64,000 bases of DNA, from assembly GCA_008632985.1 (NCBI GenBank), contig QPGO01000035.1, positions 421,899 to 485,898 on the forward strand, written 5' to 3'. This stretch comes from Psammoneis japonica. Taxonomy: Eukaryota. The translations under genes and the position numbers were made by a program. Positions 30,180 to 64,000 of this stretch are shown here, one piece after another (the first letter of the stretch is position 1; every line of letters starts with the position of its first letter). The notes below the pieces were generated by a model that saw only the letters and a list, made by a program, of their open reading frames with translations, did not search any database and had not been told where the DNA came from.

Positions 30180-30237
<58 letters not shown>

Positions 30238-30330
30238 TCTCTCTCTCTCTNNNNNNNNNNNNNNNNNNNNNNNNNNNNNNNNNNNNNNNNNNNNNNNNNN
30301 NNNNNNNNNNNNNNNNNNNNNNNNNNNNNN

Positions 30331-30374
<44 letters not shown>

Positions 30375-30800: not shown

Positions 30801-31054
30801 GGGGGGTGATGATAACCGCGCAGCGCAGGCAGAGCCGCAAACACAGATAGAGTTGGCCCACATGCAACTTGTGAGGAATCCAGAATTCTGCTTTTTGATT
30901 TTCTCTCTCAAAAAAGATCCGCGCCGAGTGCCGAGTCCGTCTTCACACACAACAATTAACCCGACAGCGGCAGCAACAATAACAACAACATCATTTCGCT
31001 GTTGTTGTCATTTGCATAGCTACACAAAACACACTTTTTTATTTGTATGGCATC

Positions 31055-41400: not shown

Positions 41401-42834
41401 TTACGTCTCACGCATGGACCGTGCAATGGCTTCGGCAATCATTTCCTCTTCGGTCATTTCTTCGTCGTTTCTGGATCCGGATGCATTGTTGTTGGACGTT
41501 CCATTGCTCTGAGCACCCGAGTTTGATGTCGTATTGGGGGGCGCACCACTACTCGTCGGTGCAACGTTGTTGCTGTTACCAGTTCCGCCGGGAGCACCAA
41601 ATCCGCCAGAGTTGCCAAATCCAGAATTGCCACCAAATCCACCCATTCCAGAGTTGCCACCCATTCCAGAAGAGTTCATCATGGCTTGCATCTGACGAAC
41701 CATGTTGGGGTCCTGCATCATTTGGCTGAGTTGATTCAATTGTTCCGGATTGGATGCCAATGCGTCCAAGTTTTGCCGAAGCATGGGATCGTTGGCAAAC
41801 CTAGGATCCCGTTCCATCATTTGACGCACAAATGGATTCTGAATAACAAAAAAAAGATGATGAGAACATCATGTCAGCCAAACGACATATAAACCGTTGA
41901 TACAGGTATCTGTAGTAGCGTAACTTACCTGAAGCATCCGCTGCATGGCTTGCGGATCGGACATTAGATTGGCTACTGCACTTTCCATACCCGGAGGAAT
42001 ATTTCCGACACCTCCTCCGGGAGCTCCCATTCCACCAGGAAATCCCATACTACCCGAAGCACCAGCTCCGACGGCTGGGAAACCAGACGCAGCAGCCGGG
42101 GGAGGCGCAGCGCTTGCGGTAGCCCGTTGCGCATCCGCCACGGCTCTCGACACGGCCTCCTTGCTGGCCACCAGCTTGGGCCAAGCCTCGGCACTGGCTT
42201 GCATCTGGTAGCATTCATCTCCATCAATGGTTTCAATAGTAAATCCAACAGCCTTCATGGCGTCATCGCCTCCGGCCAATCCGCCCAAACGGCGCTGAAA
42301 GGCTGCGTTTTGTTTCTTGACCTTGCGGTACTTTTCCTCCATGGGATGAGACGTAATGTTGACCAGAATCTTTTCAAGAGTCTGAACGGCAGTCAAATAC
42401 ACACTAGATTCGTTGGAAGATTTTAACGTAGTCAGAGCCATAGCAAGCGGATCTCCTCCAGTAGCAGAAGTGGTAGCCGCTGCTGGTGCTGCTGTCTGAG
42501 AAATCGTAACAGAAGACCCTGCAGCGCTGCTTCTAATTGGAGTTGCCGCAGGAGCAGCTTCTACTGGACTGCTGTTTTCTTGTGGCTTTCCCATACAGTG
42601 AATGACACAGCCATCTTCTAATTTGAATTCCGACACAACCTCTTTGGTTTCATCCTCGGCAATTAAACGGCCACGAAAAATAAGTTTCAGAGAGGCCAGT
42701 GGAATGTTTGTCGCGGTGGCCGCCTCGGAACGAAGCTGAGATGCGGTTGCCGTTTTGGAAATCGTAACGGGAATACGAGGAGCCGACGGAGCTGCCGTCA
42801 AGGTCAAGTGAAACGTTAGCGTATCGTTGCTCAT
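41401..42834 (-). CDS. Ubiquitin-like + PUB + STI1-like + UIM protein (p97/proteasome adaptor type)
   Basis: LKLIFRGRLI (UBL), LEKILVNITSHPMEEKYRKVKKQNAAF (PUB) and MTEEEMIAEAIARSM (UIM). GT-AG intron 41839-41928. Confidence 0.88.
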
Positions 42835-42967
42835 GGCGCAATTACCCCGACGCTCATTGCGTCTATGACGAAATGACGACAAACGAAAGCCGACGATTTT
42901 TTCTCGCGCGTCGATCGCGCACGATTCCACAGACACAATGACACACAAAAAAGAGGTGACACGTTTC

Positions 42968-44452
42968 CTCTCACATTTTGGCGTTTCGCGATTCGCGAAC
43001 CCCACCATCAGAACCCAGATAATTGCGACGACACCTTCTGCTTTTTGAAATCTGTTGGGCAATCCAATGCGATGGGTTAGAAATGATTCAGTTTTTAAAA
43101 TAAAACGGTGAAAATACAGTGACTCCTGCACTTGGTCTCTCTACCATTAGTTTATTGTCCACTTGTCTTGTTTCTTCTTCTACCTGTCTGCAACAATCAG
43201 TTGATAAAAGGTCCTCTCTAGTTTCGTCATATCATTCCATGACAAAATGGATGTTATGATTCGACGTAATGTGTTGGTTGTTCATTCCGAACATCGTCAA
43301 CGCACACCGGCAACAACGCAAAGCCGAGCAGTCAGGAAAGAAGTGAATGAGAAGAAGCCGAAATTCTTGGTTCGTTTAAACGAATCAAGTAGTAGGATTC
43401 GGTTTCCGCTATTGTGTAAGAGCGATCCTCCTAAACTTCATCCATCAGAGGCTTTGACAGGCGACGTACCGGGAGCTTATACTTGGTGTTGTGCCATGTG
43501 GTGTCACGGCATGGTATCTTATTCAGAGGGTCCGACTTCCTTCTAGTTGTACGCATAGCGAAAACTCCAAGACCCAAAACTCACCTCATAGCTCAAAGAA
43601 TAAATCTATCTACACAATTTCAATTTGATGTAATATGAAGCCTAATAGTATACTTTAATTTATGAAATAACAGCGTTGTCTCGTTTCTTTCTGTCTCGTT
43701 TTCTTTTCCAATAGACAACACACGCACAATAATCACACGCAAATCTCGCCTCCAATACACAAGTCATCCAATAACTTGGAGGCGGCGCGGATCTTCCTTG
43801 GGTTCTCTCCCTCTCTCTAGGGATCGTCTAGTGTGCCGGCAAAATAAATGAGATCTGTGTTAGGGGCCGGTGGACAGGGAGGAGCAGGCGCTAGTCCAGC
43901 CTCTTGAGCTGGTACGGGTACGCCTCCACTGGATCCAGTGGATGATGAGCTGCTTGAACCAGTGGATCCAGCGGATGATGAGCTGCTTGATCCCGATCCT
44001 GAACCAGAAGAATAGTAGGGAAGCTGGCGGCCGCGCATTCCATGTCTCTGAGCATTTGCATCGTTACTGAGAGCAACTCCCAGGGACGCAAACAACAAAC
44101 CGACTTGAAGGAACTTCATTGCGTGATTGACTTCTTGTGCAAAAAGTGTTTTATTATGAGAAGCCCTACAAGAGGCGAAGATGGAAGTACTTCAGTCGTT
44201 GTTGATGGCTTTCAAAGAATCATCGAAAGCGGGATGCTGACACCCAGAACACAATCGAATCTTCTTTTTGAATTTTCAAGTTTCAAATTGTTTGATACTG
44301 AAGCAAAAGGATTCCAATAAACGGAATCTTGCTTCACCACGATTTTAAGAATTGAGACAATTCCTATTGTCGAAAGACTGGAGAAGATACGAACCTTGTG
44401 AGACTTCTTTTGATGGATTCCGGTCGTGGCAAAATGTTCTGCTCTTCTTGCA
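42968..44452. repeat. Segmental duplication, copy A (direct repeat of ~61119-63100)
   Basis: Colinear shared blocks, e.g. ttttgaaatctgttgggcaatccaa, catggtatcttattc, gtctcgttttcttttccaatagac, acacaatcgaatcttctttttga and gtcgtggcaaaatgttctgctctt. Confidence 0.93.
43817..44119 (-). CDS. Small secreted Ser/Gly-rich protein with RxL (RQL) motif, 100 aa
   Basis: Signal peptide MKFLQVGLLFASLGVALS, RHGMRGRQL, and a paralog at 61992-62765. Confidence 0.8.
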   Translation of the reverse strand: MKFLQVGLLFASLGVALSNDANAQRHGMRGRQLPYYSSGSGSGSSSSSSAGSTGSSSSSSTGSSGGVPVPAQEAGLAPAPPCPPAPNTDLIYFAGTLDDP

Positions 44453-44699
44453 CGTAGATGTATGTATGTACAGTATTGTCTTTGAACAACCTAAATTCGT
44501 ATGACGCTATACGGATACAATAATTAGTACATAGGACCCTATGTTCTACATAGCTAATGCTGTAACAGAAATGTCAATCGCACTGTAGAATTCTATGTAC
44601 CGCAGTACAAGATCATTCACATTTTGCATTCCAAAACGACGCCCACAAAACCTTGCCAAAAGAGCAAGAGTGGAGACTCGAGAACTTTCCCTTCATGCG

Positions 44700-47050
44700 A
44701 GTGAGGAAGGACAAGCAAAGAGATTGAGCGAGAAGACGTGCTGCAATTGCACCTTGGGGTCAACTTGCCAAACATGTGGTTGCTCATGGGTGCCAAAAAC
44801 ATGGCAGACCACGCACCTCCTGTGTTTGCTTCCACAAACGCAAGAACAAGAAAGGACTCTCAACTTGCAGCACAAGCAACAGGCATTTGGACAAGAAGCA
44901 ATGGAAACTTCAAACCTTCCCAGAATCCAGTCCAATTCAGCCGAAAGTTTGTCAACTCATCAACGACACCCCTGATGTTGCCGACAAACAAACAAAAACC
45001 AGGCCAACACCGAAGCCAACAAAGAAAACATTGCACCCAACAATCAAGAGATGGACACTGATGAGGGCAGAACCAATGAGGAAGTTGACACTGCCACAAG
45101 GAACAGTGTGCAGTTGGAGGACAGACAGGGCTTGAGAAGGGGCTGTCGTTCCGTCAATTGACTGCACCATGACACACCCAATGACTTCAATTCAAAAGCA
45201 AAACAGACCACACACAAGAAGTGTGGCAAGACATGTCATCTCAGCTGTGGCACTGAACTGGATGGTGGAATGTTGGATGACAAGACAGGGCAAGAGCATT
45301 GGCGCCGGCCAGTGTCCCACCCATCGCAATGATGCGACGTGCCAAATGGCTCGATTGGCAAACGATTCATTGCAACATTGGCACAGCTGCTGCACGGAGT
45401 CATGATGTGGAAGTGGAACTTGGAAAGATTCACAGCACATCAAATGGTTGTTTTGTGGTGGGACCACAATGCAAAAGGAGTGAAAGATGTCAGAACTTTG
45501 CTGAGCACGCGCACGGACGATTGGGACGCAGGCAAGCACAAAATGCTGATCCAGTCAGCAGAGCGGCTGCTCACAAAGCTGACCTGAAGACCACTCAGAA
45601 GGAGGAGATGCCTGAACAGTGTGCTGAGACATTCAACAGAATGGTGCTCCAAGGGAACCCAAGAGGAGCAGTTGGGCACATCTGTGAATGCGAGAAAGAG
45701 GTGGAATTCTCTCACTGGATGACATCGACGAAAAAACCAAGAACGACTCAGTGTTTGAGGTGCTTTAGAAAAAGCATCCAAATCAGAGGATCCCAAACAA
45801 TGAAGACCATTTTCACAAATTCAGTGAGCTGCCCAAGCTCCAGGACATCCTTGCCACCAAAATGGCGCCATCAAGACCATCGCACGCAGACTGTCCGGGG
45901 GCGCAGGACTTGGTGGATCTGATGCCAATGCTGTGTCAGAATGGCTTCTCCATCACAGAAAAGCCAGTGGATTGCTCAGAGAAGCATCACGCATGTTTGC
46001 AAACTGGCCAGAAAACAAGCAACCCCATGGGCTGCATGTCATGCAATCATGGCAAAGCAACTTGTCACGCTAGACAAAAATCTGGGCATGCATCCGGTCG
46101 GCATGGGGGAAGCATGGCAACAAGCCACTGCCAAAGCTGTTCTCCCAGTTGCCAGAGCAGAAGCCAAGAAAGCTTGTGGGACAGACCAGCTGTGTGCTGG
46201 GCTGGAAGCATGCATTGAAGGTGCCATCCACACAACGAGCATGCTCTGGGAGCAACGCAAATTCGGATGCATGTGACTGTTGGTTGGCAGAAAAAGCTGA
46301 GTCATGGACCTTGGTCATCCAGGGACTTGCCAAGATCACAATTCACCACCCTCAGACTGCCTGTGCCGGTCTGCAGAAGTCTCCACAACACCAGTGGCAA
46401 CATGTCCAGCATGCAGCAAAGGACTGTGGCAAATGTTTGCCGATGCAGAGCACGAGACACAGTGCAATTTTCTGTCGGTGCCGATCAGTGAGACCCCAAC
46501 CAACGATGACCCAAGACCAGCCCTGTCTGCCCTCCCAATCAAATTTTCGGGACTGTCCATCCCTCATCCAACAGAGTCTGCAGCTCACAACTGTGAAGCA
46601 AGTGCTCTCACGTGCTCCCACATGATCAACTCACTCTGCGGCCGCTCCCAGTTCTCCTCCGCAGTCCACAAGGACACCATGCGCAAAGTGAAACAAGAAG
46701 CAGCCAATCAAAAAGTTAAAGCACATGGGAGACCCTCAAAATGATCCTCAGGACCCTGTCCTGCCTTCAGGCCAGAGCTGTCAAGTGCAGCACCAAGACT
46801 GGAGTGTGGCTGTCAGCATGCCCTTCGACACTGAATGGCACAGAACTCTCATGCCAACAGTTCCGTGACACGCTCTTCTTGTGGCATGGCGGCACTCCGC
46901 CAGACCTCTTGGAGCACTGCAATGGATGTGGATGCAAGTTCTCCATCAACCACACCCTCTGGTGCAAGAAGGGTGGCCTGGTCATCTCATGACATGATGA
47001 AGTGTGTGACAACCTGGGTGACCTGATTGGCAAGGCTTGCAAATCATCAT
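44700..47050 (+). mobile_element. CRE-like non-LTR retrotransposon relic (RT + zinc finger), internally deleted
   Basis: LDKNLGMHPVGMGEAWQQ...ACGTDQLCAGLEACIEGAIH (cf. RPIGIGE..RR...QLCAGLEAG.EGAIH), HPQTACAGLQKS, LPIKFSGLSIP and GTELSCQQFRD...CNGCGCKFSINHTLWCKKGG. Confidence 0.8.
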
Positions 47051-47229
47051 GTGACAACCAGGTGACCCAATTGGCAAGGCTTGCAAACCTTCCCATGCAC
47101 GTGACAAACCATGCATGCCATGGTGGCATCACATTCCTTGGCAAAAGTTGGGTCATTTGCCTTGAGTTCCAAAGTGAATTTACATGTCCAGCACAGCCGT
47201 TGGAGCATCCAGAGTGAGCGGGAAGCAGT

Positions 47230-50220
47230 GTGAGAAACCCAGAAAAAAGGAAATTGTTGAAGAGAAGATGCTTCAGCTGCCAACGTGGTGGATCTGGCAA
47301 CACTTTGAGAATGATCAAGGTGTGTGTCTGGCAAGGCCCCAGAAGACATGGCATGCATGACTTTTGCTCTGGTGAGAGTCCAACGTTGCAGATGGCATCT
47401 GCAGCGGTGCCGGCAGCATCAGCCACAGATTGCCAGAGTGAGGCAAACAAGTGGGCCAGAGAGGAAAGGCAGCTGGAGCATGATTGCAAGATCAAGTTGC
47501 ATGACTGCAATGAGAAAAGTCAAGAAGCTCAACAAAGAGAACAAGAGTGCTGCATTTGCAGCAATCCTGGACAATTGCTGCTTGGGGCCAATGAGCAAAG
47601 ATTGCAGGCTGATCTCAGTTGCCCGAGCATCAGGGATGACCCAATTGAGCTGCTGAAATTGATCCAGTCACTTGCGCTCCACTCCTTGAGAGGTCAACAC
47701 CCATTCCATTTGCTTGTCAAGTCCCTGAAGCTCACACTGGATGTGAGACAACAAGAGATGAGTGTCACTGAATGACTGCCTGTCAAGATTTAAGAATCAA
47801 AGAGACATTGCAAGGAAAATCTCAGTGGAAAGAAGCCAGATTGATTCATGATCATGAATGCCAAGGAGTGCAAGAATTGCACCAACACAGCAGATCAGAA
47901 AGCACTGAAGGACACTGCATTCAAGACATGGACCACATGTTTGTTTGTGGAGAACAGCAATGACCACACCGCTGCAAGAGCCTCAAGAAGAGCCTTGTGA
48001 GAGACCACAGCCTGGGGAGGGACTCTCATCCCAAGATCCTTGACAAGGCAATGGATGTGCTGCTGAACCATCCCAAAGACAACCTTTCAAACAAGAGGCA
48101 GAGCAAGAAGAGTGATGAACATCCAAACAACAAGAAAGATGACAAGAGCAATGACAAGTCCAAGAATCTGCAAGACCAGAGTCATGCACAGAGTGGCAAG
48201 ACAACATGCCATGGTTGTGTTGAGCCAAACCACAAGTCCCCAAACTGCAGGCACAACAATGAGATTCTGCAGAAGTGCTGGTGCAAGAACACCAGTGAGA
48301 AATTGCATGCCAGGGAACACAGTCACACACAGAGAGACAAAGACAATTTGTCTGTGATCAGCGACAATGCCAGCATTGATGCCTGCAACTGGCATGGGTT
48401 CCAAGCAGATGAACAGGCCAAAGATGGGGCAGAGAGAAGTTTGAGCCAAGGACATTTGCATCAAGTCAAATGAGATCATCGTCAATGACAGTTCTGCCCT
48501 TGGCACAGCAGCAAGTCAGAAACGGGTGCACAATGTGCAACCAGCAAGGATCAAGATTGGTCTGTCCACCAACACTGGAGTGGACACTTCAGACAGAGAC
48601 TGCACTGTGCCAGGATGGGGTGACATGAAGAAGCTTGGATCACAAAACATGACAGAAAACATCCTGAGTCAAAAGGATGTGAAGAGCAAGCACTCATCCA
48701 TTGGACTAAAAGACTGGCAGACAAGTTGTGGTGTGTTCAAAGTTGACGACATTGGGCTGCATGCATTTGCACCAAGCCAGTGATTCCATGACCATGAAAA
48801 AAAACTGCAAGAAGATGAGTTGCATGTGAGCATGCTGTCAAAGGAATGAAAAGAAGGTCACAAAGAAGACCAACAAGAAGCACAGGAGCGCACACTGGGA
48901 GAGTGCATCAGGAGCCATTGTTCCAACTGTGAAACAGAACATGAAAGGCTGCACCAAATGAGCAACAGCAAGTGCTGAGGAAGCACTCAAACCACACTGC
49001 AAAGCCAAAATGCCCAGTGTGAGGGATTTCAAGCCACTTTTATGATCCAATTGGGTGAAAAACCCATCCATCATTCCTGAAAACGTGAACAGAATGGTGG
49101 CCATTTGGGGTCCACCAGCAGATGCACTGTGAAAGGCAAGTCAAGACCAAGCAAGCACACCACTCCTGTGAGAGGAACAACACTGTTGCAACTCCACCTG
49201 AAATTTACAAAAAGAAGAAGAAGAGAGAAGGTGTGACTCTCTGCACTGATGTCACAGAAGCATGCAGTGTCAAGATGCTGCACATGGTTAACAAGACAAT
49301 CAAGCATTGATGAGGTGTGAGACTGAAGTCCAAGAGAAACATGCACTTGTGTTTGCAAAGCCTTGGACATGATTCTCCAACAGCACAGTGTGGCCCTGTT
49401 CAAAGTTGACTTTGTAGAGTGTGATCCAGAGTTCAAGGACACACTGGCAGAAGTCACGGATGGCATGAATCTGGAACTTGTTGCATCTGCAAATGCCAAC
49501 GATCATGTCCCCAAAGTTGAGTGAAGCATCCAGACCATCAAGGAGCAAACCAGAGCCACTGCACATGACATGCCATGCAAGACAACACCCATGTTGATGT
49601 GCGAGCAAGCCGTGATCAAGAGCGCTGTCATGTGGAACATGCACTGGCAACAGGAAGGGATTTCCAACACTTGCGGTCCACACACCATCATGCGTGAAGA
49701 GTCTGAACAAGACAAAGAACCCCAGGAGAATGCAACAAGATGGGGAGGTGAACGATTGGAGGAAGATGGCAAGTGTGTTGTGCTGAGCAGGATTGCAAAA
49801 TGCAGAGCATCTTTCAACATGAAGGCAGACACCAGAAAAGCAGCAAGGGAGCAACACACAAGCTCAAGTGCTGCCATCATCTGTGCACCAATGTGAGCCC
49901 CAATGCAAAGGACAATGTTGAGTGTGAAGTGGAGACAGCAATGGTGCTTGCGTGCTTCATGTGAGAGATTGATGGCCAACTCTGAAAGCAACATTTGCTC
50001 CACAAAGGCCTCAAAGCATTTGGCCAGAAGGAGCATGATGCCTCAGAGAAAGAAATCAAACATTTGCACAACTGAGTGTGCTTTGCACCATGCACCAGTG
50101 TCAGTCAAGGATGTGACTCTGACTGAAAGGAGGGCCAAGGCCATGGCAGCCTTGATGTTTCCAACCAAGAAACGAGATGGTTGTGCAAAAAGGCAAATGG
50201 TCTGCTGTTGACGCCCATGA
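47230..50220 (+). mobile_element. Copia (CoDi-like) LTR retrotransposon relic: gag, integrase, start of RT
   Basis: DDPIELLKLI, DHSLGRDSHPKILDKAMDVL, knuckle CHGCVEPNHKSPNC, integrase DPEF...DHVPKVE*SIQTIKEQTRA and RT LMFPTKKRDG. Confidence 0.8.
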
Positions 50221-52289
50221 AGGATTCCATGAAATGAGTGCATTTGTGGGGGCAATGATGCCAGCCTGGAGAAGGCAAAGACCAGATTGTGATGAAGATT
50301 GAAAAAGTGCCAGTGGACATGCCAGTGAGCCTTGATCCCAACCTGTGTGGACCTCATGTGGTCCCAGAAAAAGGCAACAAGAGAGTCCTTCATGTCCAAC
50401 AAAAAAAGTCAAGAGATTGCACAAGAGAGTGAGGACAAAGGATCCAAACTGGTGTTCCCAGCATGAGGAATGGAAAGACAAGATCTGTGGAGAGGATCCC
50501 CAGGGTTGCAGAGGTGCCACAAATTGAAAGAACTGTCAGAAACCATGACAGAAATGAAGACAAGCTGTGAAGCAGCAGTTGAATGTCTCACCACTGCTGC
50601 ACCAATGTTCTCTGTCCTGGACAACAAAGAGATTGCATCTCCAACTGTGGAGCATGCCACTGATGCACACAAGACCAAAGAATTGTGGCAGGCACCAGGA
50701 GCTGATTCCCAGACAAGACAGATTAACAAACAATGTTTGGCACCCAAAGAACATGTCTGAGTGACATTGCCACATTGTGTCACAAGTTGAATGTTGTCTT
50801 TCCTGCCTTTGGCACAAGGAGCAAGAGTGGGGTTTGTGGACCCCTCACAAATCTCAAGGATCTTGACCCTGAGAACACACAGGAGTAATTTGGACTCATG
50901 CTGGATGCCAAAAAAGCGCTGCACATGCACGGCATTCCTGAATTTGACAGAAACAGTTGACAGTTGGGTCATGGACTGCCTTGGAGGTGCAGAAGATGAG
51001 AAGAATGAGAAAGAGAAATGTTGTCACACCAATGTGGAGCACTCTGTGGAGAGTGTGCATGGGGCCATGTGTGCATTCAATGATTTGATTGATTGCAGGG
51101 ACAGTGGCAAGTGCACACATTTGTGCATTTGCAAGTTGCAGGACAGTGGTGACAGTCCTGAAATGAGCGGCAATGGCGCCAAGAGTCCTGAGCAGACTGG
51201 TGAGCTGCAAGACTGCAATGAGTCCAATGAACACAGGCCACATGAGCAGCAGAACATTGATGCAAGCATCAGGAGTGTGTTCAAGCATGTGGAACAAGCA
51301 AGAAACATGAGAATTCCTGGAAAGGAAACTGTTTCAGAAAAGATGCTTTGGCTGCTGGTGTGGTGGATCTTGCAACACTTTGAGAACAAATCTGCATTCA
51401 TTGCCAATCTCACCAACCTTCTTCTGTTGCAATCTTTGGAGTGAATCATCTGGTTTGTGCAAATTGCATTGTGGTGTCAGCAGGCACCTGTCATGCCACA
51501 AGATCAAAGTTTGTTGAGGACTTCAAGGTAAACCACAGCTGCCACAGAAACAGAACCAGTGTGACAAGCATCACATGAAGCCTCAGTGGATTCCCTTTTG
51601 GTGGCATTGACTTGTTGGTTCAAGAACAGCACCCAATTTTGGGTTGGCATCTCAGTGAGTGAGGGCTGGGTTGAAGACAGCAGCATGTTTGGCATCATCA
51701 TGCTTGCAAGTTCTGTGGCTGTGAAATTTCAAAAGACAACCAGCTGAGAAGTCTTCCTTGCAACCACCATTGGCATTGTGGAGCATGCACTCATCAACCA
51801 AGGGAGACCAGAGCTGAGGATGACAACAGTGAGTGCATGTGCACACAGTGACACAGCCTTCTTTGGGTTGCACAGAAACACACAAGCTGCCAAACCCATG
51901 AAAAGTGGCCCCTTTGCCAAGATCTGGATTGACCTTGAGGGGATGTGGGTTGTTGGTTGGTGGTGCAAATGGTTGGCAGCTGTGTGCACATCAAGTTGTG
52001 CACCACAACATTCATTGGCACATTTGAGCTGAAAGGCATTGACCTGAAAAGCTTCATGTCAGCATCAAAGGCAACAGACAGAGAGGTGCAGCATGGCACA
52101 TTTGTTGAGATGCACACAGAAATGAGGGTGGCAGTGCCAAAGCCAAAGCTGACAATTTCTTGCACGTTGCACTTTGAACACATGTGATTTCACAGACACA
52201 ATGACACACACAAAAAAGAGGTGACACATTTTGAGAGTGTTGCTCCACTGTCTGTGTGGGAATGACCCACTCACTGAGACTCTCTCAAA

Positions 52290-55200
52290 CCAGGAGAATC
52301 ATGACTCTGCTGAAAAGAGGAGCACTGTTCACACAGTGAATGGTGCAATGGTGAGTTGTTGCCACTGCCTGAAACATGTGCTGGGTGGCAGCAGCTGGTG
52401 ATTGTCCAGGCAGCCCTGGCAAGGAGAAAGCAGCACAGCAATGGAACAGGCAGTGGTGGATGTCAGCAGACCAGTTGGAGTCCTTGCACTCCACAAGTTT
52501 CACAGAGGATTTGGCCTGTGGTGGTGGGGCAATGCAGTCATGAGGAATAGTCAGGAGTGGGAAGGAGGTGGCATGAATGGGAGGAGTGGATGATTCAGGC
52601 ATGTGAGGCCAAAGCATTGGTGTTCATTGAGAGGCTGAAGAATCTGTTTCACAACTCCATGGAAATCCTCATCACCTGGGTTGGAGCCAAGCTGACTCAG
52701 CTCAGTGATGGAGAAACCCCCACTGAGATCCACACATGCAGCCACCATTGCCTGCATCAGCTTGCCAACAGCCTTGCGGCATGAGAAGCCATGCTGTGCT
52801 TTGAGGGCATGAGATTTGTTGGTCATCAAGAGGGAGGGAGCTTCATTGAGGTTGTGGTGCAGGTTGCATCATCCAGCATGGGCAATTTGGCAATGCCACA
52901 TTGTCCCATGGGTGGGAAGGTGATGAAGGGACAGTCAGCCACAACCTGTTTGATGCAGGATGTGCTGTGGAGACAAGCACAATCTCCAGTGTTTGTTCAA
53001 CATCACATGCAAGGAACAGTTTGAGGAGGCCCTGGCAGTTTTTGATCTTGCTGCCTTTTCACATGACTTGTGGCGGGTCTCATCAGAGTTGGAAGTGATG
53101 GCAAAGTCATCAACTTGACACAGAAATGGGTTTTTCTTGCAACTCACCTTTCCACTGCAGACAAAAGGTTCATGTGTTGTTGGGGTGAGAAAGACTGCAT
53201 TGTGAAGGATGCCATCAATGTGGACATTTCCACAAATGGGGGGACTTGGGGTGGCCCAGGAGCAATTGGAGGACTGCTGGGAGAACAAAGCATTCTGGCA
53301 TGGGTGGACAGCAAAGATGTTCAGTCCACCAAATTTGAAATGCTTTGTCAACTCACACACAGAATGTGTGCCGGGAAGGGAAGCTGCCATGAATTCATTG
53401 CTGATGTCAATGCCACACACTTCTCAATTCTTAAGAGTGCCCCACCAGAGTGGAGAAGAGGCAAGTGCTTGGTTGCTCCACTGAAGCTGCGCACATTTGA
53501 TCAAGGGTCTGCATGCAGCCAGATCAAGGACTGCCATCACATGTGCCATGGGCTTTCTTGGTGTGGTCAAGATTGTTCTTGACAAGGCAGGGCCACACCC
53601 AGCTAAGCACTGCTGCACCCTGGGGAGGTGGCATTGGTTCACCAAACATGCCTCAGGTGCTGTGCATGTCCCAGTTGCTCAAATTTGCTGGGTTGCCAAT
53701 TGGTCCAGTCCTCTTGGATGAGCAGTTTCCATTGAATGAGTTTTTGCATGGCCATGGTGGGAAGCGCAGGGTCCTTGATGGTCTCCAGTTGATGGCAAAT
53801 GTGGTTGATCTGGTTGAGAAAGAGCTGCAGGCAGTGGACCGCCGGAATCCAGTGTTGGGGAAGAGCAGTCATGAGCAAATTGGAGTGCGGTGGCATCATT
53901 GTCTGAACAAATGGATTGCACAACCTTGCCCAAAGATGGAAGATCAGCTGCAGGGTGAGAACACACAGCAGCAAACAAGACAGGCACATTGCAGCTTGGA
54001 TCTCCAGTGGGGCACAGGACTGGCACGAGAGCTCAAATGACAATGCTGCAGGTGCAGTCAGCCATGGTTGGAGTCATGGCTCAGCTCCAGTCCACAGAAT
54101 GGTTTGGTGGTGCCCCATGTGGGTGACAAGGGGGTGTCAAAAGAGCAATCAAATGGGTTGCAAGACACAGCAATGGTGGCAACAGATTCCAAGGCAATCA
54201 GATCTTTTGGCGTGAGGGATGCCGCTGCAGCAGTGTGTGACTCCTCATCAATGAATGTGCTTTTTCCTGGTGGCAGTTGGCTGTGCAGACAATCTTTTGG
54301 TGTCTGTGACTGGGGTGACAGATGGGGGGGGGGGCTGACTTGCTCAATGCCCAGATTGAAGAGCAGCTGAGGTCCTGGAGGTCTGATGGGTTGTGCAAAG
54401 TGCGCCTCATCACAGGTGGCATGGTGGTTGGTCTTTTCTTGGCCAATGGTGGTGGTGTCCCCATGTCAAGTGTTCTGTTTGTTGGTGGCCACACAGTCAA
54501 TGAAGATGCCATTGAATGTGTGGCAATCCAATTTCACAGCTGGTCCATCAGGTCATCTGGCATTTGCTTGAGATCCAGAAGCCTGAAGTTGGGGCAGATC
54601 TGGGACATCACCCACCCATGCTTGGTTTGGGGTCAGGTTGATTGAAGAATGCCAAAGGTGATTCTTGAGATAGATGGCATGAACCAAAGCATCAGAGCAG
54701 CACGCAGCTGGAAGGCCAGATGAGTGAAAAAGGGCCCAAACCACAACTCCAAAAGTGTTGTTGAGGATTTTGACATGGCCATTTTGCCAAGGGCTGTCTG
54801 AGCCTGTGGTCTTCATGACATGGTCATGTTTCAAACACATCTTGCAGAAATCCTCCAAACACACAAGTTTGCCACTCTGGTCTGTGCAAACACAACACAA
54901 GCCAGACTTGTGACTGTGGTGAGAGAGGAACACATCCAGCAATTTTGTCGTCGGGGGCTCCTTGCTGGGAGTGAGAAACACCCACATCCACTGATGAGTC
55001 TCGGCATCCATTGGTGACAAGAGGGAATTGCAGCCATCACAGGATTGGACAACCCAATCCACTTGATCTTTCTCATGTCCTGCTTGTCAGCACAAGGTTG
55101 CATGTCAGGCCCTGATGCATGCATGAACTGCAATCCATGTGAAAATGGTCAGTGGGTGTGAGATGGGTGTCATCCTAGATTGCCCCCCCCCCATGGACAA

Positions 55201-55450
55201 TCAATGGTGTTGGGCATCATCACACACATTGCAGGAGCAATGTGGTGTGGCACCAGCTGCAGCAGCTGGCACACTGGTGACATGGCATTAGAGGTGTTGC
55301 AATTGGTGCATGCCAGGGTGTCCCAGGTTGTTGTGATGTCCCAGTTTGCTGCTTGCAACTCAGATCAAAGAGTGAAGAATCAAGTGGAGCTGGTCATCAT
55401 TGGGCTCAGCAGTCTTGGGAGGTGGCTGGACATTGCAGTCATCTGGCTCT
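52290..55450 (-). mobile_element. Second Copia relic (integrase-RT-RNase H); probable gag remnant at ~59500-60900
   Basis: WVFLTPSKEPP...CTDQSGKL...GSDSPWQNG...ALVHAIYLKNHLWHS (integrase), TTHEP...FLCQVDDFAI (RT) and DSNWSAD (RNase H). Confidence 0.82.
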
Positions 55451-55800
55451 GGTTCAGAAAGATGTGCCAGGGTTGCCAGGGTGGGAAAAGTGTGTCCTTT
55501 CTCAACAGAGGTGGGAGCATGCATGGTCAGCTTTTGGAGAGCCCCATCAAGTTTGGTGGCAGATGAGGCAAGTGGGATGTTGGGACGAATGCAAGGAACA
55601 AACCACCCACCATTTGCATGAACCACAGGGAAGGTGCACATCAGAGAGTGGTCTTTGTTGGCAAATGTGCAATCAGCCTGTGTCCCACACCCATGCAGTG
55701 TGGCACATGAAATTGGCTGCATCTCTCCACAGATGAGCAACCAATGTGGTTGGGGGAGAATGGCACTTTGCCCAATCCTGTGGTGGACATGATTGTGAGT

Positions 55801-56064
55801 GGCCTGTTCCAGCTCCAGGTGCTCTGCTTTTCATCACGCGAGAGGCCGATTTTCTGTGCAGTTCAGCGCAATTAACACCTTCAATTTTGATCGTTTCGAA
55901 AATCGAAAGGTGAGTGTACACCCGAAAATACATGCAAAGTGTACACTCACCCTTCGATTTGGCAAAAACGGATTTGGAAAAAGTTAATTGCGCCAAATGC
56001 ACAAATTTTCCAAAAAAATGATGGGAATCGAACCCGCGCGGAGCACCTGGAGCTGGAACAGGCC
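55801..56064. mobile_element. Fold-back MITE, 264 bp, 27-bp TIRs, 4-bp TSD GAGT
   Basis: ggcctgttccagctccaggtgctctgc pairs with gcggagcacctggagctggaacaggcc (26/27). Inner inverted pairs gcgcaattaac/gttaattgcgc and aaatcgaaaggtgagtgtacac/gtgtacactcacccttcgattt. gagt lies at 55797-55800 and 56065-56068. Confidence 0.88.
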
Positions 56065-57329
56065 GAGTGTGTTTCATTTTTCCAGGATGAATGGCATTGC
56101 ATTTCACAAAATCCATGAGCTTGGCATGTTGAGCCAAATGAGAGCAGTGATGGTGACTGTGTCCACATGAGATGCATGCATCACATGTGAGGTCCTTTCA
56201 TTGTTGAAAAATGACCAGCTGGCAATCCAACTGTTGTTGGGTCTTGCAACTGAAATGGCTGCAAACCGGGTTGGACAGAGGAGGGAGCTTGGGATTAATT
56301 TGAGCAACAAGGGACACAAGTTGGAAATCACGAGGAAGCGTGGCATGCCACTGAAATGCAAAATTTGTGTCACAAATTAATTCACAAAGGCAAATGGCTT
56401 AAATTTTTCCCCAATGAAAGCACGTGCAAGGTCTCTGAATGCTTTGTTTTTGCTTCAGACAAGCAAATGTAACAGTTTTGACAAGAACCGCAGGTCTGAA
56501 AGTGACACAAAACAACAAAACAACTGGATTGTTGTCAACACAAAGAGCTGCATGATGTTTTGTTTGTGAGGAAAGGTGGTGCAATTGTGAAACAAAAAGG
56601 ACATTTTTGTTGAAATCTTGCAATGCATTGGCATGAGTTGCTGTCATGAGGAGAAGGCAATTTCCTTTGAAAATGACAATTTCTTGTCATTTCTTGTGAA
56701 TCACATCTTTTCTCAATCAAAGCAAAAGAATGCTTGCACCTTGATTGCACTGGAAGATGTGGCAAAGATGATCTTGGAGGGTGACAAGGTTGTGTGTCAT
56801 GACTTGCCTCTTGCAGCAATGGTGCAGAATTCATTTTCACTGAGTTCATTCAGCCAGTGTTTCAGAAGCATGGCAACTGGTCATGTGTCACCAGAAGTTG
56901 TTGCTTCCAACAGTTTGAGGGACTTGTTCCATTTGGCATGCATTGGGGGATCAGCAGTTGTGTTCAAAACCCAGCACAGAAAAATGTGTGGCTCTTTTTC
57001 TGCTCCTTGCAAAGATGATGTTCTTGAAGCACATCATCTTGGAGCAGTTTGGAACAGATTTCCATTGAGCACTTCCACCAGTGAGAGCTGCCAATCTTCA
57101 CGGAATTGAAAAAGTCAGGCAGAGTGTTCAAGAAGATGGCAACATGCCATTGGACAACTCAAGGGATGGCAAAGCAGGGGCTGGTGTCTCTCACAGAAAA
57201 CTTTTCAGAGGAAGATGCAGACTTACCAGCAGACAGACCTCTGGATGCATCCACAGAAGGCAGTGGATGAGCAAGGGCAGGGCCAGCAAGACAACCTGCA
57301 ATGTTTTTGAGAATCATTGGAATCTTTGT

Positions 57330-58350
57330 GGCTGCTGATGCGTCAAGCAGCCAGGGGGGCGGGGGGCAAGGAACCTGGTGATGCATCAGCCATCACCGGT
57401 GAGTGGGTGGAGGAGGATGAATCAAGGGAAGATGCAACCACGGGCAGTGGTGCTGCCAGCTGGGCAAGCTTGGAGGCACTGCACCACATGTTGGTGAGCT
57501 CTTCATTGAGGCCATTGCTTGACTGTGCAAGGTGTGGCATCAGACACCTTCTTCTAAGACTCTGCAGCTTGGGCAACTGCCTCATTGATGGAAGTGGATG
57601 CTTTGCTGGATGGATGTGTTTTGTTGTCTCCATGAACAAAGAGGAGGGACAGCCAAAAATGCAAACTTTCAAAGATGAACATCATCACATTTGTCATTCT
57701 TGGAGAGAAGGACATCCACAACATTCTTTTGCTTTGCTGCAAAGACTTTGAAAGCAATGGCATCAATGGCTGTGTTGTTTTGTTGAGCTCAGAGGAAACC
57801 ACAGATTTGAGGATAATCCAGTGTGGAGTGAGAATTTTTCACACTTGTTTTGAATGATTCAAGGGCTGACTGCAGATGATGGGTGTCAACAAGTGCACAA
57901 CTGCATCTGGGCCTGCTGGTGGTGACACTGGGCCAAAGGAAAGCAATGTTCCCAGCAGCACAACCCATGCATTGTTGCCACCAATCTTGGCAGGAATGCA
58001 ATCAATGGCAGCATTTTCAAGAAGGTGCTGGAAGGAACACACTCAAAATTTCATGCACACCCACCTCCATCACATGCCATTGTGTGGCTCATGCAAGCAA
58101 CCTCAAGTGGAAAAAGCAGGGCACTTGGGTGCAAGCATGTGGATTTTCAAAATGAGCCATCCAAGGACATTTTGTTTGCAGCCTGTCCAGATGCTCATGT
58201 CAAGTGAGCTGGGAATGAATCAAGTCATTTGGACCCGCTTCTCAAGCTTTGCCATGGCCACCCTCTGACAAGGAACCTCAAGGAGGACATGGAGAAAAAG
58301 GGAGGACCAGCTGTGCTGTTGGCTTTTTTGAGGGAGTGTTGAGCTCCTGA
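57330..58350 (+). mobile_element. PIF1-type helicase relic, probably Helitron-derived
   Basis: Degenerate motifs in order across frames: PGG.GGK-like, ATTGSGAA, LIDGS, VELRGNHRFEDNPVW, RNAINGSIF and DPLLKLCHGHPL. Confidence 0.55.
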
Positions 58351-61300
58351 GGGAAGGTGTTTTTTGGATGATTTGGAGTTGATGAGGATTGATGGTCATT
58401 GAGTGAGGTCAGCCAGTGTTTCACAAGTTGAGAGTCCGCTGTCTTGAGGCATCATGAGGAGAAGGCAGAGAGGAGGAGGTCTGCTTTGTGTGGCTCCAAG
58501 AGGAAAGAAACATGTGTTGTCAACTTTTCTGTCCCCATGATGGGCTTCATTGACAAAAGAACTTCAAGAATCAGCCAAAGACACAGATGACCTGGCTCCC
58601 AAAGTCAACAATGCAGCAACTGCCCACAACTGGGGAGCATGACGAAGAGCTGAGAGCCAGACTGTCTGAGACTGCAAAGAGGCAACTGGGTTCATTTGGC
58701 TCTGTCCACAGTGACAACAAGAAAGGGACTTTGTGGCTTGGGAAGAAGCTTGATGGCAGGAAAACAAAGGGCATGTCATTGGTGTTGAATGAGTTCCTTG
58801 GTCACTTCAGGCACACAAGAGGGGGCTCCAAGAAGTCTTTCAGCAGGCTCTCTTGCTGCAAATGACCACACAAGGCATTGCAACTAAAGATTGCAGTCAC
58901 CAGATGTTGATTTTTGACAATGTGGCAACAAACTGGGCTTGCATTGTGTGATTGTTCTTGTCAGTCCTAGAAACAAGGGGGTTGAGTTGTTCATGCATGA
59001 TCCCTGGTTTGAAAGTGAGTGTGTGTGCAAAAAGCACAAAATCTAAAAATCCATGGTCTCAATGATTTTCACATCCACAGATTGAGGTGAATGACAGAAA
59101 GACAAAAGCAACTGGCATTCAAACATTTGTGTTTGATGACCTCAAAATGGAAAAACAGCCAATCAATTGGCCAGAGGAGTCAGTGGCATCCCAACCAAAA
59201 AATGACTGGGGCAATTCAAAATTGGGCATCTTTCACATTTGTTTACAAAACAATTTGTGTGGAAGTCCCAAAGCCTTCAAAAGTCATTGGACACCATTTT
59301 GCACACAAAGACGCCTTGGGAATTTGGTCATTTTGAAAGTGGTCAGCCCCAAAGCCCAAACCCCATCTTTGTCTCACCCGTCTGTCTCCGGTTGGGGGTC
59401 AGGGCAGGGAGGAGACAACACAGATGGATTTTGGAGTGCAAGTGTTTGGGCCATCACACCATCAAACTGTTCATGCAGGGCATCCACAAGCTGTTCAGAG
59501 AAAACAAAGTGTTGGAGTGCAGAGGGTCTGTGAGGTTGGGAGGTGGAGAATCAGTCTGATGAGTGGCACAGTCACTGAGCATGCTGCTGGCACCATGGTG
59601 TCAGCTGCAGACAAGCCATTCTGCGCAGCCATTTTGGTCATGCCATGTGCCCCAAGATTGGAGGAGTTCCATCTCCTGAGTCATCTCCTGTTTGCATGTG
59701 GCAGCTTGATTGCTCAATTTTTTTTGAGTGTTGCCAGCAAAATTGCCAAGTTGCTGCAAGCCATCAGACACCACATTTTGATGTTGTCTTTGCAGTGCTC
59801 CTGTGCAGTTGTCTCAAGGAGAGTGGCAGCCTGTTTGGTGGAAGAAGTTTTGAGCTTGTGTCAAGCTCCATCTCTTCTTGGCAGCTTCCAGGCCTGGGGT
59901 CCAGGTCAGAGATGGTCCTGCAGTTTTTTGTCAATTTCAGGAGTGGTGCACTCCTTGAGAGTTTTGACAAAAGCAGCATCTTCTGCTTCATTTGCTGTTT
60001 CAGATGCCAGGGCAACAGTTTCATTGCGGCATGCATCCATCTGGTCATGAAGATCTGTGCTGACAGCATCCAATTTGGATGCAAAATGGTTGGGTGACAT
60101 GGACTCAAGCAGAGACTGTCACTCTGCCCAACATTGATCATCATCCTGAGCACTGCAAAAATCCTGCCTGAGCTTTTTGAGCTCTGCTGTGGCACCGGCA
60201 AAATCATTTTGACATGCAGCAAGCTGTTGCATGGCCTTCTTGAATGATTGTTGTTGTTGGCAGGTCACAAGAGCAGCAGACAATGTTGGCAGCAATCGGC
60301 TTCATCTGACGGTGTTTGGGCCAATCAGGAGGGAGAGGGGTGAGAGATGGAGGGTGCTGTCAAGCTGGGGTGGAGCATGGGTGTCAGCAGCCAAATGATC
60401 AGCAGGGGTCAGAGACAGGGACTTGGGCAGGGTGGGAGCTTGTGCAGTGTCAACTGGGTTGCTTTCTGCCTCTGTGACATCAGCTGCAGCAGTGAGCATG
60501 GGTGTGGGGAAGGAGGGCAGGCTGCATCATGCACCACTGCAAACACAGTCAATGTGGTCATCACGATGCTGTTGCTGGATGTGACAGCAGCAACAGGAGT
60601 GCTGAGTGAGCTTTTGCCCTGCACCAATGCTGGAGACAGAGCAGGATGCAGAGATGAGTGCTTTGCTCACCACAACAGCCCGTCTTGGAATGGGTGCTGT
60701 GGGCAGGAGCCATCTTGGTTGTTGTTTGTTGTGCTCAAAGAATGCCAGCTGTGCATGTGACAGCAGGCAGCATTTCTTTGCTGGCACACCTCACACAAGG
60801 TCTTTGTGCAAGCAGAGCATGTGCCACACCACGCCATGCATCAGACATTGGCCAACGACGCTGACAAAAGCACCAACAAGGAGAAGGACAGTGCATCCAT
60901 GGCATCAACACAGCAGAGGTGGGTGCATTGCAAGTGCTCACTGCCGTTGTTGACTGCAACATGCTGAACTGTTTTTGTTGTTTCGCGTGTGCCACTGCTC
61001 TCTCTGCTTGCTCTAGAGAGAGAGAGAGAGAGGGGCCCTGTCCCGGCTTGCTTGCTCGCAGCAAAGCTGAGAGTGATCCACTGTCGCGCCCGCACCCGCA
61101 TGGCTGCATGCGGTGGGATCACATTTTTTGGCGTTTCCGAACTCCGAACCCCGAACCCGCCCGGCCTCGATGAAAATTCACACGACACAACTTTCTTGTG
61201 GTGTTTTGAAATCTGTTGGGCAATCCAACGCAATGGGTCAAAAACAGATTTGTTTTTAAAACAGTGAAAGTGCAGTGATTAAAGCACTTAGTCTCTCTAG

Positions 61301-61991
61301 CATAATTAGATTGTGGTCAAGCTGTCTTGTTTCTTCGTCTACCTGACTGCAAAAATCAGTTGATATAGTTTCCTCATTTCATTCCAAGCCAAAACCGTAC
61401 ATAGATGACCACAATGTAAAAGGTGACTCACAATCTCATGACGACTCGACGTATGTAATGGTGTCGGTTGTTCATTCCGAACATCATCGGAAACGCACAC
61501 GGCAACAACACACGGCCGAGCCGACACAAGTACCAGAAAATGTGAATGAGAACCCGGGATCTAAAAAATTCTTCGTTCGTTTACACGAATCAAGTAGGGG
61601 GATTCGGTTAGTGATCGTGCAAGAGCGATCCTACCAAACTGCATCCATAATGTGCTTTGACAAGTGAGATTATATTTGGTTTTGTGTAATGCGGTCATGG
61701 CATGGTATCTTATTCGCCATGGGTCCGATTTCGTTCTAGTCGTACAATGCGAAACCTCCAAGACCCGAAACCAGCGTCATAGCTCAGAGACTAGATCTAT
61801 CTACCAGTACGCAATATCAGTTTGATATATTATGAAGTCTAATAGTGTATAGTTTTTAATTTATGCAGCATTGTCTCGTTTCTTTCAGTCTCGTTTTCTT
61901 TTCCAATAGACAGCACACACAATGCAAATCTCGTCTCCATTGCACAAATCATTCAATAAGAGGCGGCGCTAATCTTCCTTGGGCTCTCCCT

Positions 61992-62765
61992 CTAGGGTGG
62001 TAGGGTACCGGTATAAAAAGTGAGCTCTGTGTTCTTTTCCGGTTCACATGGAGGAGCAGGTGCTAGCGTTTGCGTCTCTTCGATTGGTACGCCTCCACTG
62101 GATCCTGCTCCGCCACTTGAACCGGACTCTTCGATTGGTACGCCTCCACTGGATCCTGCTCCGCCACTTGAGCCACTCTCTTCAATTGGTACGCCTCCAC
62201 TGGATCCTGCTCCGCCGCTTGAACCAGACTCTTCGATTGGTACGCCCCCACTGGATCCTGCTCCGCCACTTGAACCACTCTCTTCGATTGGCACGCCTCC
62301 ACTGGATCCTGCTCCGCCACTTGAACCAGTGGATCCAGTGGTTCCTGCACCACTTGAACCAGTTGCAGTGGATGCCGCACCGCTTGAACCAGGGCTAGTT
62401 GCACCTTCTTGAACACTGCTTCCACTGGCTGCGCCACTTGTACCAGCTGTAGTACCACTTGAACCAGTTGTAACGGATGCTGAGCCACTTGAACCAGTGC
62501 TAGTTGCAGCTTCTTGAACACTGCTTCCACTGGGTGCGCCACTTGAACTGCTAGTTGCAGCTTCTTGAACACCACTGGATCCCGATCCTGAACCACTACC
62601 GTTTCCACCGGAATCCGCACCGCCCGATGTAACTGCTGAGCTTCTAGAAGTACAGTCTGTACCGGAAAGCTGGCGGCCGCGAAGACCATGTCTCCGAGCA
62701 CATCCATCTTGACCGAGAGCAACTCCCAGCGACGCAAACAACAAACCAAGTTGAAAGAACTTCAT
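61992..62765 (-). CDS. Secreted Ser/Gly-rich RxL protein with 17-aa repeats (paralog of 43817-44119)
   Basis: MKFFQLGLLFASLGVALG...RHGLRGRQL; GSSGGAGSSGGVPIEE x5; LAPAPPC tail shared with the paralog. Confidence 0.85.
   Translation of the reverse strand: MKFFQLGLLFASLGVALGQDGCARRHGLRGRQLSGTDCTSRSSAVTSGGADSGGNGSGSGSGSSGVQEAATSSSSGAPSGSSVQEAATSTGSSGSASVTTGSSGTTAGTSGAASGSSVQEGATSPGSSGAASTATGSSGAGTTGSTGSSGGAGSSGGVPIEESGSSGGAGSSGGVPIEESGSSGGAGSSGGVPIEESGSSGGAGSSGGVPIEESGSSGGAGSSGGVPIEETQTLAPAPPCEPEKNTELTFYTGTLPP
62081..62335. repeat. Coding tandem repeat, 5 x 51 bp
   Basis: cgattggtacgcctccactggatcctgctccgccacttga recurs every 51 bp. Confidence 0.95.
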
Positions 62766-63547
62766 CGTGTGATCGATCTTGCCTTGTGCCGAATGTGTTT
62801 TCTGTTTTATTATGAGAAGCCGGAGAAGAGGAGATGGAAGTAGTCGTATTGGTTTATGTTGTTGATTGCTTTCAGGAATCGGACGCGGGATGCTGACACG
62901 AAGAACACAATCGAATCTTCTTTTTGAGTTCACAAGTTTCAAATTTGATACTGATCAAACGGATCCCAAGAACGGAATCTTACTTCACCATGTTTGTCAG
63001 GATTGCCGATTACTATTGTAGAAAGAGTTGAAATATGAGAACCTTGTGAGATTTCTTTTCAGGGTTCCTGTCGTGGCAAAATGTTCTGCTCTTGTTGCAT
63101 TTATACTATCTTTGGGCTACGAATGAGATATTAAAAGTTTATCACATATAATGCACCCAAATGCGTTTGGACATATTCAGATACATATACCTAGTAAATG
63201 AACGATTTTTGGTGGGAAACTCTTATGACATTCTTCATCTCTTTAGCATTATCAAACATAATCACCATCGTAGAGTTCTACACGATATGCGGGTTTTTGT
63301 AGGTAAGTTTAAAAGACCGATTATGCGTGGTGTACAGAATTTGACATTAGACTATTTGACAACCAAACCAAATTTTATATCGTAAACGACAATGACACAA
63401 GATAAAAATATACGAGCCGTTGCAAAAAACACGGGTTGCTCTTACGAGAACAGAACACGAGACAAAAAAAGACGCGTGCGAGACATCGAAATTCGAGGCT
63501 CTGCCGCAACTGCAACCTGTTGTCAAGATGGCACAATGATGCTTAGA

Positions 63548-64000
63548 TTGAATTTGATTGAGCTCTTGCCAAGTTTTTTAGCATGTCAATCCACTGCAAG
63601 CATCTTCTTCTTGATTGCTGCTTTGTGAGCAAATCCCCCTGATGGCAGCCAGTGCAAGAGCAACAAAGAGTGCCAACTCTCTCTTTTTGCATCTAGAGCA
63701 AGGCTCTTTAATCTCTTGTTGTGAACAACCTCAATTGCAGTGCAGATGCATTCCAGCTCTGGAGGTGTTCCCTTGGTTGTGACAGAGCACACAGCAGTGC
63801 ACACACAGAACGTGTCAAAAATCACCTCTGCCAGTCTCCAACAACACGCGAGCACTTTTTTTTGTGCTTGGGTTGAATTTGATGGAGCTCTTGCCAAGTT
63901 TTTTAGCATGTCAATCCACTGCAAGCATCTTCTTCTTGATTGCTGCTTTGTGAGCAAATCTCCCTGATGGCAGCCAGTGCAAGAGCAACAAAGAGTGCCA
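63548..64000. repeat. Direct repeat with 325-bp period inside a TpA/CpG-depleted tract running off the window
   Basis: 63548-63676 is near-identical to 63873-64000. Confidence 0.9.

Follow-up and report, generated by a model that had tools for sequence, protein, structure and literature searches.

A TpA- and CpG-purged island in a diatom genome and the flanking-base rule of its surviving TpA sites

The purged tract and its contents

We analysed a 64-kb window of the diatom Psammoneis japonica (assembly GCA_008632985.1, contig QPGO01000035.1, positions 421,899 to 485,898 of the forward strand; coordinates below are those of this window of 64,000 nucleotides), in which ordinary genes flank, on both sides, a tract of 16,650 bp (44607–61256) that has been purged of the dinucleotides TpA (TA) and CpG (CG). 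The window is eukaryotic and intron-poor, and the closest named proteins of its lactate dehydrogenase are all from diatoms: Attheya sp. (72 %), then Cylindrotheca, Nitzschia and Epithemia; none on record is identical to it. Over most of its length the observed-to-expected ratio (O/E) is about 0.54 for TA and about 1.0 for CG. The symmetrised ratios in the tract are 0.03 for TA, 0.16 for CG and 1.84 for TG/CA, with CG falling to 0.08 of expectation in the core. Setting aside one inserted miniature inverted-repeat transposable element (MITE), 31 TA remain where about 586 are expected, and 155 CG remain in the tract of an expected 961 or so, both expectations presuming that the tract was originally similar to the rest of the window. 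The GC content is nearly that of the surroundings (0.491 in the tract versus 0.484 outside), and all remaining dinucleotides lie no more than 15 % from background.

Both edges are well defined. On the left, the final dense TA stands at 44606, with 22 TA in the 150 bp upstream and then none over 1,160 bp; on the right, TA is dense again from 61257–61280. At the background density of TA, a gap of 1 kb would arise with a probability of 3e-16. The TA-poor tract that the original prediction had started at 45760 thus exists but is wider than was proposed. The two depletions are uncoupled at the margins of the tract, where TA is almost absent and the O/E of CG is 0.2–0.9 (first 2.8 kb and last 0.7 kb). 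No tandem repeats were found in the tract, and almost no internal repeats at the nucleotide level.

When the reads of sequencing run X1 were assembled, contigs of kilobase length matched the tract with 0–4 differences each, at a depth of 56–67 compared with 57–69 in the flanks, which excludes an assembly slip; run X2 gave only fragments here and run X3 nothing. The X1 reads have CG at three positions where the window has CA (52435, 52437 and 53444), so that assembly and reads are not alike in the CpG that the island has lost; alleles or isolates may be the cause.

As judged by similarity, the tract is decayed retroelement DNA. An exhaustive phmmer search with the element at its left end, which is internally deleted, gave 1,364 matches (best identity 47 %); RVT_1 was found in three of five scanned relatives, in one of them above the Pfam cut-off, and tblastn with 28 long relatives returned 96 matches to the element. 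Word-indexed protein searches with read-through pieces gave no match, and the exhaustive search alone succeeded. Decay is advanced, with 92 stops in one frame. Pfam searches yielded nothing real among 176 stop-free pieces of the tract (two sub-threshold chance matches) and no domain in the read-through frames of 51.6–55.8 kb on both strands. With TAA and TAG absent, TGA is nearly the sole stop left in the tract, and these 176 pieces, each open over at least 60 amino acids in one of the six frames, are false open reading frames that would mislead gene callers.

A second stretch, on the minus strand, may resemble a retrotransposon integrase core, and we treat it as a lead only. It was picked up through language-model look-alikes (scores 0.92–0.96), falling in clusters in which 42–77 % of the members carry PF00665 (rve), and Pfam itself gave no match. 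By read depth (57–65, flanks 57–69) the surrounding DNA is single-copy. In the MITE five TA, in two cases as GTAC, are retained along with many CG, which implies that it was inserted after the purge. Its summed word depth is about 12,500 where unique DNA has about 60, roughly 200 times as much, and the family is probably high-copy and recently active.

The island is bracketed by two direct copies of a host segment of 1.5–2 kb, about 85 % alike by eye in alignment. The pair was found by recoding the window into purines and pyrimidines; ordinary blastn gave a match of 41 bp only. The features discussed here and below are collected in Table 1.

Table 1. Coordinates of the tract's contents, its flanks and further purged tracts in the window
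Feature	Position	Strand	Remarks
Duplicated host segment, left copy	42960–44455	+	TA and CG normal
Retroelement with reverse transcriptase similarity, decayed, internally deleted	44643–47100	+	starts at most 37 bp from the left edge of the tract
Internal repeat, copy 1	47198–47314	+	partner 51278–51389; 90 % alike in purine/pyrimidine coding
Internal repeat, copy 2	51278–51389	+	partner 47198–47314
Short element, mutated copy	52092–52232	+	partner outside the tract, 42832–42967
Retrotransposon integrase core-like remnant (candidate)	54556–55086	-	language-model look-alikes only
MITE	55801–56064		264 bp; 27-nt terminal inverted repeat, ends 96 % complementary; GAGT on both sides
Right-edge segment of the tract	61085–61256	+	inside duplicated host segment; 0 TA, 13 CG retained
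Duplicated host segment, right copy	61130–63100	+	~100-bp tandem array expanded at 62067–62660
Partly purged tract	15270–17300		TA O/E 0.07–0.28, CG O/E 0.42–0.68
Second wholly TA-free tract	29079–30813		1734 bp, CG-poor; 80-N gap and long GA-rich arrays
Purged tract beginning near the window end	63544–64000		starts ~63540

Survival of TpA depends on its flanking bases

The tract holds 36 TA in total, five within the MITE and 31 elsewhere. Sorted by the bases on either side (Y, pyrimidine; R, purine), the 31 comprise 19 YTAR sites, 12 mixed sites (RTAR or YTAY) and no RTAY site. These counts agree with the original prediction of about 30 survivors, two thirds of them YTAR and none RTAY, and all seven of the sites that it quoted exist, the CTAG given at 55176 starting at 55175.

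We compared the survivors with three null distributions. In the undepleted remainder of the window (1,557 NTAN words) YTAR, mixed and RTAY sites make up 15.0, 51.6 and 33.4 %; drawn from these, no RTAY among 31 has a probability of 3.4e-6 and at least 19 YTAR one of 5e-9 (chi-square 55). In 79 intact relatives of the retroelement, taken from metagenomes (11,824 NTAN), the shares are 21.3, 50.9 and 27.8 %, no single locus has less than 15 % RTAY or more than 35 % YTAR, and the two probabilities become 4e-5 and 1.6e-6. If the survivors were instead back-mutations arising in the TG/CA contexts of the tract (24, 52 and 24 %), the corresponding values are 2e-4 and 8e-6. All three nulls are therefore rejected on both key counts, with P from 2e-4 to 5e-9. 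Leaving out one less depleted patch (56260–56500) gives 27 survivors, namely 16 YTAR, 11 mixed and no RTAY (P = 1.7e-5 and 1.7e-7). This patch of about 240 bp retains four TA (three TTAA and one GTAA) and five CG at about 15-fold read depth, and may be a younger, partly purged insertion.

Assuming the NTAN make-up of the window, we estimate that none of about 196 RTAY sites, 12 of about 302 mixed sites and 19 of about 88 YTAR sites have survived, the ranking that had been predicted. A multiplicative model, in which each strand contributes a half-site, fits the ten context classes and is strongly preferred over uniform survival (likelihood ratio 50.9, 3 degrees of freedom, p = 5e-11). The per-strand survival factors, by the base 3' of the A, are 0.64 for TAA, 0.33 for TAG, 0.09 for TAC and 0.05 for TAT; as plain trinucleotides, 13.7, 7.4, 2.1 and 1.2 % remain, respectively. 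Given that about 78 % of the YTAR sites have also been lost, TAY is a rate preference of about 3- to 7-fold per strand, and TAR is not immune. The notion of TAY as an all-or-none target motif does not hold.

The purge of CpG, which we add to the TpA loss originally described, has a flank bias of its own, weaker than the TA rule. TCG is lost most: over the whole tract the survival factor is 0.27 with a 5' T and 0.39–0.52 with any other base there (p = 2e-4), and for the core the corresponding figures are 0.13 and 0.29–0.42 (p = 5e-5).

The 79 metagenome relatives, which come from other organisms, have TA O/E values of 0.33–0.83 and none lower; in them the excess of TG/CA goes with the loss of CpG (Spearman -0.84) and not with that of TA (-0.18, not significant), and the share of YTAR does not vary with how much TA they hold. 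None of these 79 shows the same purge, in a sample whose search patterns contain Tyr and favour intact copies.

Further tracts in the window served as replicates. The partly purged tract retains 19 TA, of which 11 are YTAR, six mixed and two RTAY (P = 2e-5 for YTAR), and all five TA at 63544–63904, in the tract that begins near the window end, are YTAR. A (GA)n run at 61017–61033, near the end of the main tract, may be compared with the GA-rich arrays of the second wholly TA-free tract.

Direction of change and targeting

The dinucleotides that are missing and those that are in excess balance each other. Per kilobase, about 33.9 TA and about 49.2 CG are missing, together 83.1, and TG and CA have gained 79.8. 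The balance extends to the two unambiguous flank classes, in which the TG/CA gain was predicted as 21.7 and found to be 23.0 for R..Y, and predicted as 16.9 and found to be 16.8 for Y..R.

Ancestral states can be read from several comparisons. Where the tract has TG, relatives found in the reads have CG (46358, 46364 and 46395) or TA (46373), and where it has CA (46401–2) they have TG. The short element has a copy outside the tract whose CG faces TG or CA in the tract copy at nearly all CpG, and a TTAC that faces TTGT. Between the two copies of the internal repeat, CA in one faces TG in the other, a pair of adjacent changes each time, at five or more places over about 110 bp, as expected if ancestral TA or CG had been resolved independently in each. 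At the protein level, the retroelement has 22 positions with a conserved Arg codon, of which nine are kept, six now read His or Gln and five read Cys, Trp or stop, and 11 columns that are often Tyr in the relatives contain no Tyr at all (four Cys, five His and two other residues).

The two products are equally frequent (1,843 TG and 1,924 CA) and randomly interleaved (runs test over 3,767 TG/CA steps, z = +0.73; autocorrelation about zero), indicating that the changes were made one by one and on both strands, without strand-coherent sweeps. The Arg codons had suggested strand coherence, with all changes at 46040–46410 to CA and all at 46786–47005 to TG; the tract-wide runs test rejects it.

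Flank dependence per strand is as originally predicted, and the TGY product of a strand-independent TAY to TGY change has appeared only weakly. The survivors taken alone fit this change and its mirror, RTA to RTG, equally. Five cases favour TAY to TGY over the mirror change: two Tyr codons preceded by C that are now TGT (46362 and 46592), the TTAC to TTGT change in the short element, and two sites, both TTAC in the window and TTGC in the X1 reads (57224 and 59244). Two cases go the other way, an Ile column that is now ATG before G (46103) and a weakly Tyr column that is now CAC after C (46347). The binomial test of five against two is not significant, and we regard this as a lean rather than a result. 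Among six Tyr-likely codons with a purine before them, where both outcomes are expected, two are Cys and four His. The excesses of the 16 NTGN words were uninformative on product direction, the gains observed being poorly correlated with those expected under each of nine combinations of rules (r from -0.27 to -0.04).

The domain, rather than copy number, governs which DNA is targeted. The unique-depth stretch at 52.4–55.5 kb (depth 57–65) is purged as fully as stretches of 8- to 30-fold depth, and the purge has spared both the MITE, with its high copy number, and the gene-adjacent copy of the short element. On the right, the TA-free zone extends about 170 bp into the copy of the host segment; a graded spill of the purge beyond that point is suggested, and no more.

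Two other parts of the window deserve mention. An intact open frame of 875 amino acids at 2450–5074 (minus strand) has a low TA O/E of 0.15–0.24 at 4001–5000 with CG near normal, and may be a gene or element that the TA process reached while open; Pfam found no match in it, and gave no support to its candidature as a Mutator-like element (MULE) transposase. At 19400–24200 (minus strand) stand several long open frames with tandem cysteine-rich modules and Ser/Pro/Thr linkers, which look like secreted or wall proteins.

The proposed mechanism and its alternatives

We consider it likely that the tract is an island of dead retrotransposons whose TpA was lost by directed hypermutation with a rate preference for TAY, and whose CpG was purged alongside. 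Transitions made in place, site by site and on both strands, would have turned nearly all TpA and most CpG into TpG or CpA. The rate at TpA would be set by the base after the A, TAT and TAC changing at a per-strand rate about 3 to 7 times that of TAG and TAA; RTAY, which presents two good targets, would then vanish, and YTAR, which presents none, would linger. The dependence on flanks suggests an enzymatic agent, most likely a DNA adenine deaminase of the base-flipping type with T-A-Y as its recognition context, and targeting would be of a chromatin type. Loss of CpG would most simply be deamination of methylated cytosine, with TCG struck hardest, and would have run at a different pace from that of TpA, because the edges of the tract have lost all TA and kept much CG.

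TpA loss of this form would be directed hypermutation of silenced foreign DNA, of the kind described in mutation-accumulation lines of the chlorarachniophyte Bigelowiella natans (Mettrop et al., bioRxiv 10.64898/2026.01.13.699255). According to that preprint, mutation rates in two integrated viral regions are about 1000 times higher, in some lines only; 230 of 231 new mutations in them are A>G or T>C, all 230 on TpA; clusters poor in TpA and rich in CpA and TpG are enriched in reverse transcriptase (RT) and DDE domains; and an ADAT2-like adenine deaminase is proposed, with reference to Trypanosoma ADAT2 (bioRxiv 10.64898/2026.01.13.699255). The tract resembles these regions of giant-virus and virophage DNA in the change of TpA to TpG or CpA on either strand, in its discrete blocks of foreign DNA, possibly single-copy, and in its RT signature. 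Its changes at TpA have the A>G and T>C form, the blocks are discrete and carry mobile DNA, and the purge is independent of repetition. It differs in that the host is a diatom, that CpG is purged as well and flanks matter, that we see an end state and not observed events, the two TTAC/TTGC differences between window and reads being the one hint of newly arising change, and that TA O/E is 0.03 compared with 0.45 in the B. natans viral region. The main text of the preprint does not contain the words 'context', 'trinucleotide', 'flanking', 'CpG' or 'diatom' (bioRxiv 10.64898/2026.01.13.699255). The literature searched gave no account of TpA being purged in a diatom.

Repeat-induced point mutation (RIP) of fungi is a host process that introduces transitions throughout transposons and spares neighbouring genes; it converts CpA to TpA, so that TpA is enriched, acts on duplicated sequence recognised by homology, and is strand-coherent. 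The tract shares with RIP the transitions in transposons and the sparing of surrounding genes. Its CpG loss, greatest at TCG, resembles TCG-directed RIP in basidiomycetes (PMC2621366, PMC3318451). Unlike in RIP, TpA is destroyed and CpA gained (TA O/E 0.03, TG/CA 1.84), stretches of unique depth are hit, the outside copy of a repeat of about 270 bp is spared (a length that may be below threshold), and there are no strand-coherent runs. The ordinary CpG decay of methylated transposons also turns CG into TG or CA, as here, but cannot remove TpA.

The natural RNA target of ADAT2/ADAT3 and of TadA is an A preceded by U, and we know of no evidence that these enzymes serve in genome defence. Both A and C in DNA are substrates of the amphioxus enzyme BjADAT2, which prefers TCG for C and, in E. 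coli, GAA for A (PMC10354150). One fold can act on both bases with a preference for TCG. A tract whose CpG loss is heaviest at TCG and whose lost adenine always has a T before it would fit such an enzyme, and the GAA context of BjADAT2 does not.

Several points count against the reading that we favour. CpG is purged here, whereas the B. natans regions have nearly no C>T excess, so that either two overlapping processes or a different agent would be at work. The adenine context of BjADAT2 is GAA and not TAY (PMC10354150). The depletion is reckoned from counts that assume an original composition like that of the window, and run X1 is possibly the sample behind the assembly, in which case the reads offer no independent biological replication. 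The case for action in place is built from indirect signs. Of these, the spill into the right copy of the host segment loses weight when the copies are compared, since TA lost in the right versus the left copy stands at 5:1 near the edge and 4:5 farther out (Fisher p = 0.29), and no spill of the purge was seen past the left edge.

Among the alternatives, the one that we would still entertain, while thinking it unlikely, is that a single deaminase of the TadA/ADAT2 type that needs a 5' T made both changes on either strand, T-A-Y to T-G-Y and T-C-G to T-T-G. Both would yield TG on the strand acted on, and both share a T before the target. Further encouragement comes from the dual activity and TCG preference of the amphioxus enzyme (PMC10354150) and from the ADAT2 homologue proposed for B. 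natans (bioRxiv 10.64898/2026.01.13.699255), though the GAA preference of the former for adenine speaks the other way. In the tract itself, TA and CG loss are uncoupled, with margins that lack TA and have a CG O/E of 0.2–0.5 or higher; the Tyr codons at 46362 and 46592 went from TA to TG on the plus strand, and the nearby Arg codons (46040–46410) from CG to CA; and TC outside CpG is undepleted (TCC 16.1 versus 15.9 per kb).

Still less probable, in our estimate, is that thymine was the changed base, the T of R-T-A being modified, for example oxidised by the chemistry of TET/JBP-type enzymes, and then mispairing with G to become C. In duplex DNA 'purine before TA' describes the survivors as well as 'pyrimidine after TA' does, and a reading by the 5' neighbour would set the discriminating base beside the target, as in TCG. 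The products expected, RCA and TGY, are those of adenine deamination too, so that the two make the same sequence prediction. No such enzyme or base in diatoms turned up in the literature, in which no search was aimed at these enzymes or bases.

Editing before integration seems very improbable. The elements would then have been changed as RNA, by ADAR-like adenosine-to-inosine (A-to-I) editing, or as complementary DNA (cDNA), by APOBEC-like deamination, and the tract would be a heap of copies mutated in advance. Its left edge does coincide with the 5' end of a retroelement. ADARs favour a 3' G, and TAG is the triplet they like best; TAG is among the best survivors here, 7.4 % being kept compared with 1.2–2.1 % of TAT and TAC. 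They are also, to our knowledge, animal enzymes, and the closest named proteins of the window are diatom. The changes are confined neither to the sense strand nor to retroelements: TG and CA are equally frequent, Tyr has become both Cys and His within one element, a piece that is no retroelement and is common to the host flanks (the short element) is mutated, and the copies of the internal repeat were resolved independently. A T before the A is what ADAR hyper-editing would leave, U 5' of the edited A being its usual preference according to the preprint (bioRxiv 10.64898/2026.01.13.699255). Taken as a whole, the flank rule, in which loss is greatest at TAT and TAC, lower at TAG and lowest at TAA, points away from an ADAR-like reader and towards one that senses the base after the A.

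A base-calling or assembly artefact, arising for example from modified bases, is hardly credible. The window does contain an N gap, but the X1 contigs reproduce the tract at flank depth, its sharp edges fall at the ends of elements, the MITE inside it is normal, and stops and amino-acid changes follow the pattern within a recognisable gene. Least plausible of all is selection against TA and CG as words (through nucleases, TA-targeting transposons or RNA decay) in place of a mutation bias, for although both are self-complementary steps, the DNA is dead, with its many stops and no Pfam domain among its open pieces, TA is normal in intact relatives, and selection could hardly keep TA at 3 % of expectation across 16 kb.

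We class the tract as a diatom case of the newly described TpA hypermutation, to which it adds a flank rule and a separable purge of CpG. To judge from the literature searched, TpA-directed hypermutation of foreign DNA has been reported once so far, in the 2026 preprint on one chlorarachniophyte and with dinucleotide context only; the present window offers a saturated end state of a B. natans-like signature in a diatom. The flank rule offers a screen for candidate deaminases and can be checked on the 231 published B. natans mutations. If the process is general, purged transposons would escape Pfam, as all 176 open pieces did here, and would create long false open reading frames, which matters for annotation. 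As a more tentative thought, to which we give little weight for now, diatoms and chlorarachniophytes may have in common an old, chromatin-guided defence by DNA editing, in which one TadA/ADAT2-like deaminase, requiring T before its target, would erase T-A-Y and T-C-G from silenced foreign DNA until the element becomes unreadable; the TAY and TCG rules would then be the footprint of that enzyme.

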